Part shown: piece by piece, positions 9,283 to 20,344 of the stretch
Layout of the letters: each line of letters starts with the position of its first letter
Position numbering within the stretch: position 1 is the stretch's first letter
Origin: Hyphomicrobiales bacterium
Lineage (GTDB): Bacteria; Pseudomonadota; Alphaproteobacteria; Rhizobiales; Xanthobacteraceae
NCBI GenBank assembly: GCA_016185205.1
Contig: JACPOA010000018.1
Span: forward strand, 59,914-123,913
Direction: 5' to 3'
DNA: 64,000 bases
Translations under genes and position numbers: made by a program
Notes under the pieces: model-generated
Databases searched by the model: none
Told to the model about the DNA's origin: nothing
Seen by the model: only the letters and a program-made list of their open reading frames with translations

Positions 9283-10482
9283 TCATTTTGCCGGCGCGCC
9301 GGCGGCGACCCAGGCAGCAAGCATCCGCCGCTCTTCCGCGGTCATTTCCGTAATATTGCCGGGCGGCATGGCGTTTGAGCGCACCGCGTTGCGCTCGATC
9401 AGCCTCGCATTGCGATGAATTGATTCATTGGTATCAAGAAGCACGCCTTTGGGGGCCGTTGCGATTGTCGCCCAGACCGACTCTTTTGCGTGGCACATGC
9501 TGCATCGGGACAGCACAATAGTTTCCACTTGTGCAAATTGCGGCGCTGGCGGTAGCGCACCGGTCGTCGTTTCGCGTGGTCCAGCGGCCGAGAGCCATGC
9601 GACAGCCGCCATGCCTCCGGCCGCAACGGCCCAGGTCCACCAAGGACTGCCTCTACCGGCGTGGCGCGAATTGAAGAAGTGACGAATGATCGGACCGAGC
9701 GCCAGGATGATGGCCACGATGACCCAATTGTACCGGGTGGCAAATAGCAGAGGATAATGGTTGCTGATCATGAGGAAGATGACCGGCAAGGTCAGATAGT
9801 TGTTGTGGACCGAGCGTTGCTTGCCGATCTTTACCCATTCGGGATTGGGTTCGCGTCCGGCGAGCAGGGCGGCGACGGTCTTCTTCTGGTTCGGAATGAT
9901 GATCGCAAAAACATTTGCCACCATCACTGTGCCAATGATGGCGCCGATTTGGTTGAACGCGCCGCGGCCGCTCAACATATGAGTAAATGCAAAAGTCAAA
10001 ATCACGATAAAGCAATAGCCAACCCAGGCGAGCGCCGCCTCATGCCTGCCTAACGGCGAACGACACAAGACCTCATAGATCAGCCAGGCGGAAATCAAGC
10101 TTCCCAAACTGAATGCGCCAGCCGCAAATGGCGTCAGATCCATCGAAGATTTGTCGATGAGGAAAAGCTCCGCATCGAGATAATAGACGACGACCAGCAA
10201 CGCAAACCCGGACAGCCACGTGGTGTACGCCTCCCACTTGAACCAAGTCAGTTCGTCAGGCATGCGCGCGGGCGCCAGCAAATATTTGACCATGTGATAG
10301 AAGCCGCCGCCATGCACCTGCCAAGCGTCGCCCTGCACGCCCGTGGGAAGTCCGTCACGATGCTTGAGACTGAGGTCGAGATGAATAAAATAAAATGAAC
10401 TGCCAATCCATGCCATGGCTGCGATCACATGCAGCCAGCGAAGCACAAGACTAAGCCATTCGGTCAATATCGGGTTAAACAT
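9283..10482 (-). CDS. puuD: Urate hydroxylase PuuD (membrane protein with C-terminal cytochrome c domain)
   Basis: 'LRWLHVIAAMAWIGSSFYFIHLD' N-terminus, multiple TM helices, C-terminal haem-c motif 'CSMCH'. Confidence 0.85.
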   Translation of the reverse strand: MFNPILTEWLSLVLRWLHVIAAMAWIGSSFYFIHLDLSLKHRDGLPTGVQGDAWQVHGGGFYHMVKYLLAPARMPDELTWFKWEAYTTWLSGFALLVVVYYLDAELFLIDKSSMDLTPFAAGAFSLGSLISAWLIYEVLCRSPLGRHEAALAWVGYCFIVILTFAFTHMLSGRGAFNQIGAIIGTVMVANVFAIIIPNQKKTVAALLAGREPNPEWVKIGKQRSVHNNYLTLPVIFLMISNHYPLLFATRYNWVIVAIILALGPIIRHFFNSRHAGRGSPWWTWAVAAGGMAAVAWLSAAGPRETTTGALPPAPQFAQVETIVLSRCSMCHAKESVWATIATAPKGVLLDTNESIHRNARLIERNAVRSNAMPPGNITEMTAEERRMLAAWVAAGAPAK

Positions 10483-10552
10483 GTGCGGGCCTGCCCGGGA
10501 GACTGCAACTGTAGCATGGCGAGCGAATGCCGAACGGAGAAGTCGCCGTGGT

Positions 10553-10750
10553 TCAGGGTATCGGCACGCAGGTATTCGGGATCGGGCACACCTTGGCGCA
10601 TTGCTGGGTGTCGTACTCGCCCTTGCATTCCTGGCACTTGTCCGGGTCGATCGCGTAGACGTCGCCCGCGACGCTGATGGCCGAGTTCGGGCATTCGAAT
10701 TCGCAGGCGCCGCACGCCGTGCACAGGGAAGGGACGATCATGAAAGCCAT
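10553..10750 (-). CDS. Small 2x[4Fe-4S] ferredoxin (YfhL-like, 65 aa)
   Basis: '[12 protein letters not shown]' plus '[18 protein letters not shown]'. The start overlaps the upstream gene by 13 nt. Confidence 0.8.
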
Positions 10751-19492: not shown

Positions 19493-19507
19493 CTTGGGAT
19501 TTTCCCG

Positions 19508-20344
19508 TCAACGCTCGAGATCGCTGAATTCCTCATGCAACGACTCGATGCGCCGCAGACGCTCCTGCGCCGACGCGCCGAGCGCCAGCGCCACGCCGGA
19601 GCCGAGATAGTTCACGAGACTCATGGCAGCGACGTAGGAATCGAACAGGCGCGCCCCGCGGCTGTAACAGCGGAATACGATATGGGCCGATTTTCCGACC
19701 TTGCCGAGCGAGGAATCGCCCAGCAGGACGGTCCGCGCCTTGGCGGCGGCGGCGGCACGGAGGATTCGTCCCAGCACCGGCGGACGCCGGCGGAAGCCGA
19801 ACGCCAAAACGGCGTCACCCCGTCCCAGGTCGGAGAATTCTTCGGCCACGGTCTGGCCCGGGACCGGTAGCAGGTTCACCTGCGGGCGCACCTGCACCAG
19901 CAGCTCACGGGCGTAAAAGGCAAGCGGATAGCTGTTGCGGAATCCGACCACGGTTACGCGTTGCGCGCCGGCGAGGATTTTAACGGCGGCTTGCACATGG
20001 TCGGCAGGAATCGTCTCGATGGTACGCCTGAGGTAGGCAATGTCGTGCCCGAGATGCTCCGCCAATGTTCCGTCCAAATCCCGGGTATTTGACAGCTCGG
20101 CGAGCGGCGAGCCGTTATGATAGTGATTGCGCGCCTGCTGGCGCATTTCGTGGAAATCCGCATAGCCAAGACGGCGCACCAGCCGTGCGGCGGTCGCCTT
20201 CGACACCCCCGAGCGGGCTGCCAATTCGGTTGCGGAATAGGCCGCAAGGTCGCCCCGCATCTCAAGAATCAGCTCCGCCAGCTTCCGCTCGCCGAGCGGA
20301 AGCGCGTCATATGTCTCGCGGATTCGGTGAACCAGCGGGTCCAT
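19508..20344 (-). CDS. MurR/RpiR-family transcriptional regulator (HTH + SIS domain)
   Basis: 'LSATELAARSGVSKATAARLVRRLGYADFHEMR' HTH_6, then a SIS-like C-terminus. Confidence 0.8.
   Translation of the reverse strand: MDPLVHRIRETYDALPLGERKLAELILEMRGDLAAYSATELAARSGVSKATAARLVRRLGYADFHEMRQQARNHYHNGSPLAELSNTRDLDGTLAEHLGHDIAYLRRTIETIPADHVQAAVKILAGAQRVTVVGFRNSYPLAFYARELLVQVRPQVNLLPVPGQTVAEEFSDLGRGDAVLAFGFRRRPPVLGRILRAAAAAKARTVLLGDSSLGKVGKSAHIVFRCYSRGARLFDSYVAAMSLVNYLGSGVALALGASAQERLRRIESLHEEFSDLER

Follow-up and report, generated by a model that had tools for sequence, protein, structure and literature searches.

The reductive degradation of urate, worked out in 2025 in Escherichia coli and clostridia, is already known as a type of pathway. 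Its described genes encode XdhD(-YgfM), YgfK or UacX, SsnA, HyuA, YgeW together with YqeA (or UacY), YgeY and YgeX, and it runs through 2,8-dioxopurine (yanthine), ureidomethyl-hydantoin, diureidopropionate, albizziin and diaminopropionate to pyruvate as the end product (PMC12507026; bioRxiv 10.1101/2025.04.24.650524; both 2025). In C. difficile, XdhD comes without YgfM, the reductase UacX has no flavin adenine dinucleotide (FAD) domain and reduced ferredoxin was proposed as the electron donor (PMC12507026). Descriptions of the pathway confine it to obligate or facultative anaerobes, with an enrichment in host-associated habitats, and a commentary does not decide between an ancient invention and a recent adaptation to the gut (PMC12990295). 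An oxidative route is known from Agrobacterium and other Proteobacteria, where the gene of the membrane urate hydroxylase PuuD is clustered with those of 5-hydroxyisourate (HIU) hydrolase, OHCU (2-oxo-4-hydroxy-4-carboxy-5-ureidoimidazoline) decarboxylase, PuuE, allantoate amidohydrolase and a permease (PMC4562309). Genes related to both routes lie side by side in the stretch of DNA analysed here, which is referred to as the window: 64,000 nt from a Hyphomicrobiales bacterium (Xanthobacteraceae), assembly GCA_016185205.1, contig JACPOA010000018.1, positions 59,914-123,913 of the forward strand.

Taken as a whole, the locus can be viewed, with fair probability, as a purine/urate catabolic supercluster of a Xanthobacteraceae/Hyphomicrobiales-like alphaproteobacterium. 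A conserved operon of seven genes, rpiR-xdhD-ssnA'-PLP1-PLP2-ygfK'-fdx, which would be controlled by its own RpiR-type regulator, abuts an oxidative urate module; puuD is placed at the 3' end of the operon, where it would probably be reached by read-through and may also possess a promoter of its own. This arrangement is the explanation that we favour on balance. Gene families were scored with NCBIfam and Pfam models against their curated cut-offs (Table 1), and the proteins were compared directly with the E. coli K-12 uricolytic cluster by blastp and tblastn. By homology, the seven-gene block, together with the divergent ygeY-ygeW-carbamate kinase operon (20469-24216, plus strand) and hyuA, reasonably likely encodes a ferredoxin-dependent variant of the reductive urate pathway.

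As in E. coli K-12, homologues of XdhD, YgfK (N-terminal and Fe-S parts), SsnA, HyuA, YgeW, YqeA and YgeY are found within 15 kb, and ssnA lies directly beside a gene of the reductase side (ygfK in E. coli, xdhD in the window). Unlike the E. coli cluster, the locus is devoid of YgfM (no homologue of this FAD subunit was found in the 64-kb window), its reductase YgfK' is without an FAD/NAD(P)H module, there is an additional gene for a dedicated ferredoxin, two unrelated fold-type II pyridoxal phosphate (PLP) enzymes stand in place of YgeX, and yqeB, yqeC and mocA are not nearby. The regulator is of the RpiR type, whereas E. coli has the sigma-54 activator YgeV. The window XdhD belongs to the type of TIGR03311, an NCBIfam equivalog named 'selenium-dependent xanthine dehydrogenase'; it is 26% identical to E. 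coli XdhD (EcXdhD) and 30% to E. coli XdhA (EcXdhA), and lacks the Glu606 loop of the former. With C. difficile and Clostridium sporogenes, the locus shares a molybdenum hydroxylase without FAD subunit, which in the clostridia is an XdhD or XdhAC without YgfM, and a ring reductase with flavin mononucleotide (FMN) and Fe-S sites but no FAD/NAD(P)H domain. It differs from this clostridial variant in that the reductase is a truncated YgfK and not a PydA-like UacX, that the ferredoxin gene is physically coupled to the reductase gene, that YgeW and carbamate kinase are kept (UacY replaces these in clostridia) and that the host, to judge by the titles of its closest relatives, is a high-GC, free-living alphaproteobacterium also carrying the oxidative route. 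The proposed chemistry also resembles reductive pyrimidine degradation by PydA/PydB/PydC, in which the aromaticity of a uracil-like ring is removed by an FMN/Fe-S reductase before a cyclic amidohydrolase opens the ring (an analogy drawn in PMC12507026); the substrate class and enzyme subfamilies are different, and the route of the window would start with a molybdenum hydroxylase and open two rings.

E. coli YgfK aligns with the reductase of the block at residues 5-395 (41% identity) and 898-991 (33% identity), without any alignment to the window protein between these segments, and no Pfam DHO_dh domain was found in it. Judged from these alignments, YgfK' is YgfK without the central FAD/NAD(P)H module (about residues 400-900), which makes it, at the level of predicted domains, a third ring-reductase architecture beside YgfK and UacX. 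We propose that YgfK' is a ferredoxin-dependent 2,8-dioxopurine reductase and that XdhD is a urate/2,8-dioxopurine oxidoreductase. The candidate electron donor is the 65-residue ferredoxin encoded immediately downstream, in which both cysteine clusters (CxxCxxCxxxCP and CxxCx8CxxxCP) are readable. Database relatives of YgfK' number 6301 at E <= 1e-100, and its family is hosted by Alpha- and Betaproteobacteria, Myxococcota and Acidobacteriota, including, by their record titles, the cultured Consotaella aegiceratis and Telmatospirillum siberiense 26-4b1 and metagenome-assembled genomes (MAGs) of Ramlibacter; a further cultured carrier of a ygfK' locus is Rhodoplanes sp. TEM.

The two PLP enzymes are a candidate substitute for YgeX, as suggested by their position and co-occurrence. 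In a genome scan with YgfK' as the query, which returned 80 loci (L001-L080), PLP1 and PLP2 form an adjacent pair in 34, from Proteobacteria, Myxococcota, Acidobacteriota and Planctomycetota. A search for YgeX, which among the ygfK' loci covered the window, found no homologue: tblastn with E. coli YgeX gave no match, and blastp gave a marginal one to PLP2 (24% identity, E = 1.6e-4) and none to PLP1. Neither protein matched the NCBIfam diaminopropionate ammonia-lyase models at E <= 1e-5. The context of the Schiff-base lysine is kept in both translations. The best Protein Data Bank (PDB) matches of PLP1 are cysteine synthases (E ~1e-13), and those of PLP2 are threonine synthase and serine dehydratase. 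An assignment of function by sequence was abandoned for both enzymes, as PDB and NCBIfam gave only distant CysK and ThrC/dehydratase matches that fix none.

Evidence for the operon comes from its junctions. The first-pass annotation of this DNA had described eight minus-strand genes from rpiR to puuD linked by seven short junctions, and every coordinate was reproduced by the list of open reading frames (ORFs) and by direct reading of the sequence. From rpiR to puuD, the spacings are +15 (19493-19507), -10 (16850-16859), +21, +8, +24, -13 (10738-10750) and +70 nt (10483-10552), negative values being overlaps; the xdhD/ssnA overlap reads ATGGCATTGA. The ferredoxin ORF falls below the size of the ORF list and was read by eye from the sequence. 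PLP2 has a formal alternative start at GTG 14556; the alignments of its homologues begin at residue 1, which is an ATG in L001, L003 and L004 and no start codon in L005. The remaining start codons are likewise backed by homologues that align from residue 1, with ATG in the closest relatives. The gene names given by the annotation proved right in kind, but 'ssnA', 'ygfK', 'ygeY' and the ferredoxin all score under their curated cut-offs. Its statement that the run contains no terminator-like hairpin also holds: a pattern scan yielded 5 sites where chance would give 8.8, none of them in a junction, and RNA folds of all seven junctions gave z values from -0.16 to +1.53 relative to shuffled sequence. 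Antisense ORFs of 469-597 aa lie at 11014-12807, 16682-18403 and 14004-15413 (all plus strand), opposite ygfK', xdhD and the PLP genes; these were taken as high-GC artefacts because similar antisense ORFs elsewhere in the window show non-coding patterns of GC content at the first and third codon positions (GC1 and GC3).

The same spacings recur in other genomes, which chance co-orientation would not give, so that they go beyond chance. The xdhD/ssnA overlap is exactly 10 nt in 8/8 loci of Alpha- and Betaproteobacteria (L001, L003, L004, L005, L010, L012, L018 and L022), and the 13-nt ygfK'/fdx overlap is kept in all three loci checked (L001, L003 and L004). The rpiR-xdhD gap is 15-19 nt in L001, L003, L004 and L010, the ssnA-PLP1 gap is 21 nt in the closest relatives, and the PLP1-PLP2 gap varies between 5 and 20 nt across related loci (8 nt in L001 and L003, 11 nt in L005). 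The gene order from rpiR to fdx is kept in L001, L003, L004, L163 and L164, and for L168 and L169 the fetched sequence, as far as it reaches, covers xdhD to fdx in this order. In every relative, conservation of the operon ends with fdx. These data support the view that rpiR-xdhD-ssnA'-PLP1-PLP2-ygfK'-fdx behaves as one conserved operon, and the two conserved overlaps are compatible with translational coupling of xdhD with ssnA' and of ygfK' with fdx. Some relatives carry broken genes: PLP1 is in two pieces in L004 (7109-8610), several operon genes are fragmented in L167, and ygfK' and the permease gene are fragmented in L168. These are either pseudogenes or frameshift errors of the assemblies.

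The AT-rich divergent region between rpiR and ygeY contains two 16-bp boxes, GAAACATATGTTTCAT and GAAATATACGTTTCAT (20354-20399), built on one palindrome. Within the window, this palindrome is restricted to this site (4 strand-hits, a number reached by 0/100 shuffles), and it is also found just upstream of rpiR in L001, L003, L004, L007 and L055. It can be considered as the phylogenetic footprint of a candidate operator that is probably bound by RpiR. Further RpiR operators at puuD, hyuA or the oxidative genes were sought and discarded, as the window holds no additional match even at 3 mismatches; consequently, there is no evidence for one common regulon. The mechanically called start of the ygeY-like ORF (20343) would overlap the rpiR start by 2 nt. 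Its translation points to ATG 20469 (MSNLDARV…) as the most likely real start, so that the divergent promoter region would measure 124 nt.

Table 1. Features of the urate locus, listed by position in the window
Feature	Position	Strand	Evidence
Allantoate amidohydrolase	4328-5530	-	NCBIfam above cut-off
PuuE allantoinase	5557-6483	-	NCBIfam above cut-off
OHCU decarboxylase	6735-7265	+	NCBIfam above cut-off
HIU hydrolase	7267-7620	+	NCBIfam above cut-off
Xanthine/urate permease	7799-9160	+	NCBIfam above cut-off
Strongly structured region between convergent puuD and permease genes	9161-9282		Minimum free energy -52.8 kcal/mol, z = -6.71; 0/200 shuffles fold as well
puuD, membrane urate hydroxylase	9283-10482	-	PF06181 Urate_ox_N 442 bits, residues 5-297; C-terminal cytochrome c domain, CSMCH motif in translation
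fdx-puuD spacer, 70 nt	10483-10552	-	No terminator-like structure; fold z -0.11 and +1.22
fdx, YfhL-type 2x[4Fe-4S] ferredoxin, 65 aa	10553-10750	-	NF033683 70.6 bits vs cut-off 86; Pfam Fer4 above cut-off; start overlaps ygfK' stop by 13 nt
ygfK' (truncated YgfK): FMN/DPD-like N-terminal domain and 2x[4Fe-4S] region	10738-12831	-	TIGR03315 positions 4-411 of 1012 only, 397 bits vs cut-off 835
PLP2, 425-aa fold-type II PLP enzyme, distantly ThrC/dehydratase-like	12856-14133	-	Pfam PALP 137 bits
PLP1, 501-aa fold-type II PLP enzyme, distantly CysK-like	14142-15647	-	Pfam PALP; CysK models far under cut-off
ssnA', ssnA-like amidohydrolase	15669-16859	-	NF005540 SsnA 273 bits vs cut-off 444; 35% identity to E. 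coli SsnA; start overlaps xdhD stop by 10 nt
xdhD-type molybdenum hydroxylase, fused 2Fe-2S and molybdenum cofactor (Moco) domains	16850-19492	-	TIGR03311 903.8 bits vs cut-off 830.45; Pfam Fer2_2, Ald_Xan_dh_C, MoCoBD_1/2
rpiR, RpiR/MurR-family regulator, first operon gene	19508-20344	-	Pfam HTH_6 40 bits; NCBIfam HexR/RpiR alignments, residues 3-224
Candidate RpiR operator pair and operon promoter region	20354-20399		Palindrome GAAACATATGTTTC / GAAATATACGTTTC, two copies, 30 bp apart
ygeY-like M20 hydrolase	20469-22010	+	NF009555 182 bits vs cut-off 321; 33% identity over E. coli YgeY residues 102-374; N-terminal extension of ~110 aa
ygeW carbamoyltransferase	22044-23237	+	NF005538 661.8 bits vs cut-off 453; 66% identity to E. 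coli
Carbamate kinase	23272-24216	+	NF009007 398.5 bits vs cut-off 266; 45% identity to E. coli YqeA
hyuA-type D-hydantoinase/dihydropyrimidinase	24256-25659	-	TIGR02033 583 bits vs cut-off 393; 40% identity to E. coli HyuA
IS5-family transposase, C-terminal remnant	25740-25934	-	Pfam DDE_Tnp_1_2 31.1 bits vs cut-off 29.2; translation

To the left of the operon, and including puuD, the oxidative urate route appears from its gene families to be complete in the window; the gene calls of this module were taken over from the Logan contig L081, whose sequence is identical to that of the window. HIU hydrolase and OHCU decarboxylase genes lie near puuD (6735-7620), as is expected for the PuuD family. 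Like the PuuD clusters of Agrobacterium and other Proteobacteria, the module thus combines puuD with these two genes, puuE and the genes of allantoate amidohydrolase and a permease. Unlike them (PMC4562309), it has puuD 70 nt behind a co-directional reductive operon with no terminator between, an arrangement seen in three close lineages and in none of 79 distant loci. A DUF3830 protein (3881-4297, plus strand) adjoins the allantoate amidohydrolase gene in the window, L163, L164, L165 and L168, and adjoins puuD in L169; this protein possibly belongs, as a member not yet characterised, to the oxidative urate/allantoin module.

The position of puuD was followed through the relatives of the locus. 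In L163 (YgfK' 91% identical) and L164-166 (92%), the order of the window is found from rpiR to puuD and continues with the permease, HIU hydrolase, OHCU decarboxylase, puuE and allantoate amidohydrolase genes, the fdx-puuD gap being 70 nt in L163 and 114 nt in L164-166. At 86-87% YgfK' identity, the seven-gene operon is intact and only what follows fdx varies: a convergent permease gene and then puuD on the opposite strand (L169), a permease gene with puuD absent from the fetched flank (L168), xdhC (L167), or xdhABC-like genes with puuD about 7 kb away on the opposite strand (L001). More distant loci (L003 and L004, 79-84%) have no oxidative gene after fdx. L081, being identical to the window, gives no independent evidence for the fdx-puuD junction; L163 and L164-166 do. 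A metagenome scan with PuuD as the query returned 80 loci, of which 79 are relatives at 70-75% identity; none of these 79 has ygfK' or fdx within 8 kb of puuD. Within 10 kb of the 80 ygfK' of the genome scan were found XdhD (42 loci), SsnA (40), PLP1 (36), PLP2 (36) and an M20 carbamoylase-like gene (33), xdhD and ssnA being paired in 36, and oxidative genes in only 4. A first conclusion from the two scans, that the fdx-puuD junction is unique to this organism, was overturned by the contexts of the closest YgfK' relatives, L163 and L164-166. Throughout this family-level clade, the reductive operon has genes of purine/urate oxidation as neighbours, but a co-directional puuD is limited to one subclade; the gene was added recently and does not belong to the conserved operon.

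A seam is visible at the fdx/puuD boundary. The puuD-proximal ~50 nt of the spacer (10483-10532) are a leader common to L163 and L082, and in the alignments the similarity ends about 15 nt past the fdx stop. In L082, whose puuD is 90% identical, the genes directly upstream encode a ParB-N6/N4 DNA methylase and a large subunit of phage terminase (L082 714-3934); a prophage remnant there occupies the place that the reductive operon holds in the window. As the leader is shared with a locus whose upstream neighbours are prophage genes, puuD is evidently expressible without the operon. In L164-166, the 114-nt spacer is different and AT-rich. GC3 is 0.667 for puuD and 0.57-0.74 for the oxidative genes vs 0.76-0.90 for the reductive block (0.864 for fdx). 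This step, the shared leader and the IS5 remnant at the far edge of the block mark the seam. The remnant, a fragment of an IS5-family DDE transposase (…NLVEHFFNKLKHFRAIATRYDKLARNFLAGVQLA…), is flanked by hyuA and a TetR gene, and its location at that edge of the high-GC3 block suggests that the reductive block arrived or moved as an island. A transposase-like sequence (…GIEPHVTVFDRS…), recognized by eye only, directly follows fdx in L004.

Transcription could cross the seam. The first terminator-like structure downstream of the rpiR promoter is the region 9161-9282, just past puuD. Its long stem (CCCGTCATGCCTTGC…GCAAGACATGACGGG) is kept in L082 with one compensatory change from a T-A to a C-G pair, and its hairpins are predicted to form what is probably a bidirectional terminator. 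The fdx-puuD spacers of L163 and L164 are likewise free of terminators and of excess structure; a hairpin (z = -2.2) follows fdx in L169, where fdx faces a convergent gene. As fdx and puuD are not separated by anything terminator-like, and strong hairpins first appear just after puuD, read-through is physically plausible, and part of the transcription of puuD probably originates from the reductive operon.

The puuD leader may in addition carry its own promoter. The element CATGCT (10513-10518) recurs upstream of many distant puuD genes within a CTTGAA-N18/19-CATGCT-like motif. A scan with the sigma-70 consensus, which was not tuned to Alphaproteobacteria, found no minus-strand promoter within 9000-20700. 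Several other signals were tried and set aside. Reading the 'TGGCATGCT...TGC' motif upstream of relatives of puuD as a sigma-54 promoter fails on the GG-to-GC spacing, which by our count is 13 nt and not 11. The imperfect palindrome CTACAGTTGCAG of the puuD leader was rejected as a shared operator, with 5 matches in the window vs 5.5 expected, and no 11-mer is common to this leader and any other intergenic region of the cluster. A riboswitch or structured RNA in the spacer or in the leaders of purine genes was also rejected: Rfam gave no match at gathering scores over the whole window, only chance-level matches at E up to 5 in 6300-10800, and the spacer folds no better than shuffled sequences.

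These results modify the picture of an eight-gene unit that the first-pass annotation had drawn from the spacing. Co-transcription is supported from rpiR to fdx by the tight conserved spacing, the operator and the absence of internal terminators, but puuD, with its subclade-only junction and its own leader, is not a fixed member, and spacing is weaker as a proof of its co-transcription than first appeared. The partial translational coupling that was proposed remains compatible with the two conserved overlaps and does not extend to puuD, which is uncoupled (70-nt gap, weak Shine-Dalgarno sequence). A pairing of the two urate routes does exist and recurs when whole loci are considered, but not as a fixed eight-gene transcription unit. 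As for the description of PuuD as 'O2/cytochrome-c-linked', the CSMCH heme motif is present, whereas the link to O2 was only a hypothesis in the original paper (PMC4562309). To call the partners of PuuD 'enzymes otherwise known from anaerobes' was too strong, considering that the YgfK' family occurs in soil, peat and groundwater bacteria.

Combining gene content with homology to the described pathways, from which we infer the substrates, the following model can be drawn. The operon would be transcribed from the rpiR-ygeY divergent region under the palindromic operator, probably bound by RpiR. XdhD, working without an FAD subunit, would reduce urate to 2,8-dioxopurine, whose ring would then be reduced by YgfK' without an FAD/NAD(P)H module, both enzymes drawing their electrons from the co-translated YfhL-type ferredoxin. 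SsnA' and HyuA would open the two rings. The ureido groups would be removed by YgeW with carbamate kinase, a step that would yield ATP, and by YgeY'. Finally, one or both PLP enzymes would take the role of YgeX and convert diaminopropionate to pyruvate and ammonia. The puuD gene would come from the neighbouring oxidative module, a rearrangement in one subclade having set it co-directional, 70 nt behind fdx and with no terminator between. The pairing would then reflect two modules clustered on urate as their common substrate, allowing oxygen-flexible uricolysis, and would involve no mechanistic coupling of the enzymes. A flow of electrons from PuuD into the reductive enzymes ('urate dismutation') was rejected on general thermodynamic grounds. 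Cytochrome c has far too positive a potential for the reduction of a 2x[4Fe-4S] ferredoxin.

Several observations weigh against this model. With regard to the enzymes, alignment by MAFFT places Glu606 of EcXdhD, which was suggested to orient urate (PMC12507026), in an insertion that neither EcXdhA nor the window XdhD has. Given this and the 26% identity, only its membership in TIGR03311 and its gene context point to the substrate and direction of the window enzyme. The scores of SsnA', YgfK', YgeY' and the ferredoxin stay under the curated cut-offs. Selenium is needed by the gut enzymes, a requirement shown for C. sporogenes (bioRxiv 10.1101/2025.04.24.650524), and no selD and no homologues of YqeB, YqeC or MocA were found in the 64-kb window. 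With regard to puuD, a promoter in its leader is no more than putative, the -35 position being poor in the window, L163 and L082 and only the -10-like CATGCT being conserved. Furthermore, the co-directional fdx-puuD junction persists through ~8-9% protein divergence in three lineages, and a Xanthobacteraceae MAG (L015, 2903-9451) carries puuD, puuE, an ORF for a fused OHCU decarboxylase-HIU hydrolase, ygfK' and hyuA co-directionally with gaps of ~24-45 nt, so that oxidative and reductive urate genes have been interleaved independently a second time. Owing to this persistence and to the L015 array, the co-expression of puuD may be selected rather than accidental.

A rival explanation makes puuD an obligate eighth gene of the operon with a part in its pathway, so that co-transcription would be the functional design; XdhD could for instance work oxidatively, converting 2,8-dioxopurine, xanthine or another oxopurine to urate with electrons passing to ferredoxin, and PuuD would oxidise this urate next. 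Besides the junction in three diverged lineages and the mixture of oxidative genes with ygfK' and hyuA in L015, the presence of a strong terminator after puuD and none before it fits such an operon, as do the in vitro reversibility of the clostridial XdhD-type enzyme, DOPDH (bioRxiv 10.1101/2025.04.24.650524), and a window XdhD that is as close to EcXdhA as to EcXdhD and has no Glu606 loop. We nevertheless consider it improbable: puuD is inverted, displaced or absent at 86-87% identity while the seven-gene operon stays intact, ygfK'/fdx are near none of the 79 other PuuD loci, L082 keeps puuD and its leader behind prophage genes, and puuD differs in GC3 and is not translationally coupled. The invariant xdhD/ssnA overlap (8/8) and the pairing of both genes alongside ygfK' (36/80) would also be left unexplained, as these enzymes act after reduction and not after oxidation. 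The converse, that Rho-dependent termination or RNA processing in the spacer, for instance, ends the operon functionally behind fdx, that puuD is transcribed only from its own leader promoter and that their adjacency is a neutral result of rearrangements within an island of purine catabolism, is rather unlikely but less so. It is consistent with fdx being the last conserved gene in every relative, with a leader shared with a locus where terminase and methylase genes lie upstream, with the replacement of the spacer in the sister lineage L164-166 by a 114-nt AT-rich sequence typical of promoter regions, with the CTTGAA-N18/19-CATGCT-type motif of many distant puuD, of which the window keeps the CATGCT part, and with the GC3 step at one edge of the block and the IS5 remnant at the other. 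It has to contend with a spacer without intrinsic terminator or excess structure (z -0.11 and +1.22), even though a hairpin is found in L169 where fdx meets a convergent gene, with the lack of a convincing -35 in the window, L163 and L082, and with the negative sigma-70 scan of 9000-20700, which was not tuned to Alphaproteobacteria.

The seven-gene block might instead act on another N-heterocycle (a pyrimidine, a hydantoin or another oxopurine), its position reflecting a general clustering of nucleobase genes. The scores of SsnA', YgfK' and YgeY' under equivalog cut-offs, an XdhD that shares no more than 26% identity with its characterised E. coli counterpart and has no Glu606 loop, two uncharacterised PLP enzymes in place of YgeX and a HyuA model named dihydropyrimidinase would all agree with this. 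However, every published step of the urate pathway except that of YgeX has a homologue within 15 kb, YgeW is above its cut-off at 66% identity, XdhD passes that of TIGR03311, the same gene set recurs across phyla, and the block lies beside a xanthine/urate permease gene and urate-oxidation genes in every arrangement seen in the clade. Another substrate thus seems quite doubtful to us, and a reductive urate operon joined by puuD in one subclade remains the preferred explanation.

Several features of the locus were not found described in the searched literature: a truncated YgfK with a coupled ferredoxin, a PLP pair in place of YgeX, an RpiR-type regulator and operator for reductive urate genes, the reductive pathway in free-living high-GC environmental bacteria, and its physical merger with the PuuD route. 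They touch the question whether the pathway is ancient or arose in the gut, since a predicted complete but differently built pathway (ferredoxin-dependent, without YgeX and with an RpiR-type regulator) occurs in environmental bacteria that also carry the oxidative route, the marker protein YgfK' has thousands of relatives across soil phyla, and the two urate routes are physically merged in some lineages. Tentatively, it is possible that free-living, largely aerobic or facultative bacteria of soil, peat and groundwater, among them Xanthobacteraceae-like Alphaproteobacteria, Betaproteobacteria, Myxococcota and Acidobacteriota, run a ferredoxin-dependent 2,8-dioxopurine pathway that in one alphaproteobacterial subclade is fused transcriptionally to PuuD under a single RpiR-controlled promoter. 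If so, one urate signal would switch on oxygen-independent and respiration-linked uricolysis together, the reductive pathway would be an old environmental invention rather than a gut adaptation, and the truncated YgfK with its own ferredoxin and the PLP pair replacing YgeX would be new enzyme forms. The locus offers candidates for study in YgfK' with its ferredoxin, in PLP1/PLP2 and in the regulator-operator pair, as well as a natural case of choice between oxidative and reductive uricolysis in one organism.

Farther along the window, three tandem genes for DctP-type solute-binding proteins of tripartite ATP-independent periplasmic (TRAP) transporters are found at 45560-51405, with dctQ and dctM alongside on the opposite strand. 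A methyl-accepting chemotaxis protein (MCP)-type signalling protein with a C-terminal PilZ domain is encoded at 51651-53183 and moaA lies at 53321-54373. All of these are unrelated to the urate locus, apart from MoaA serving the synthesis of Moco.

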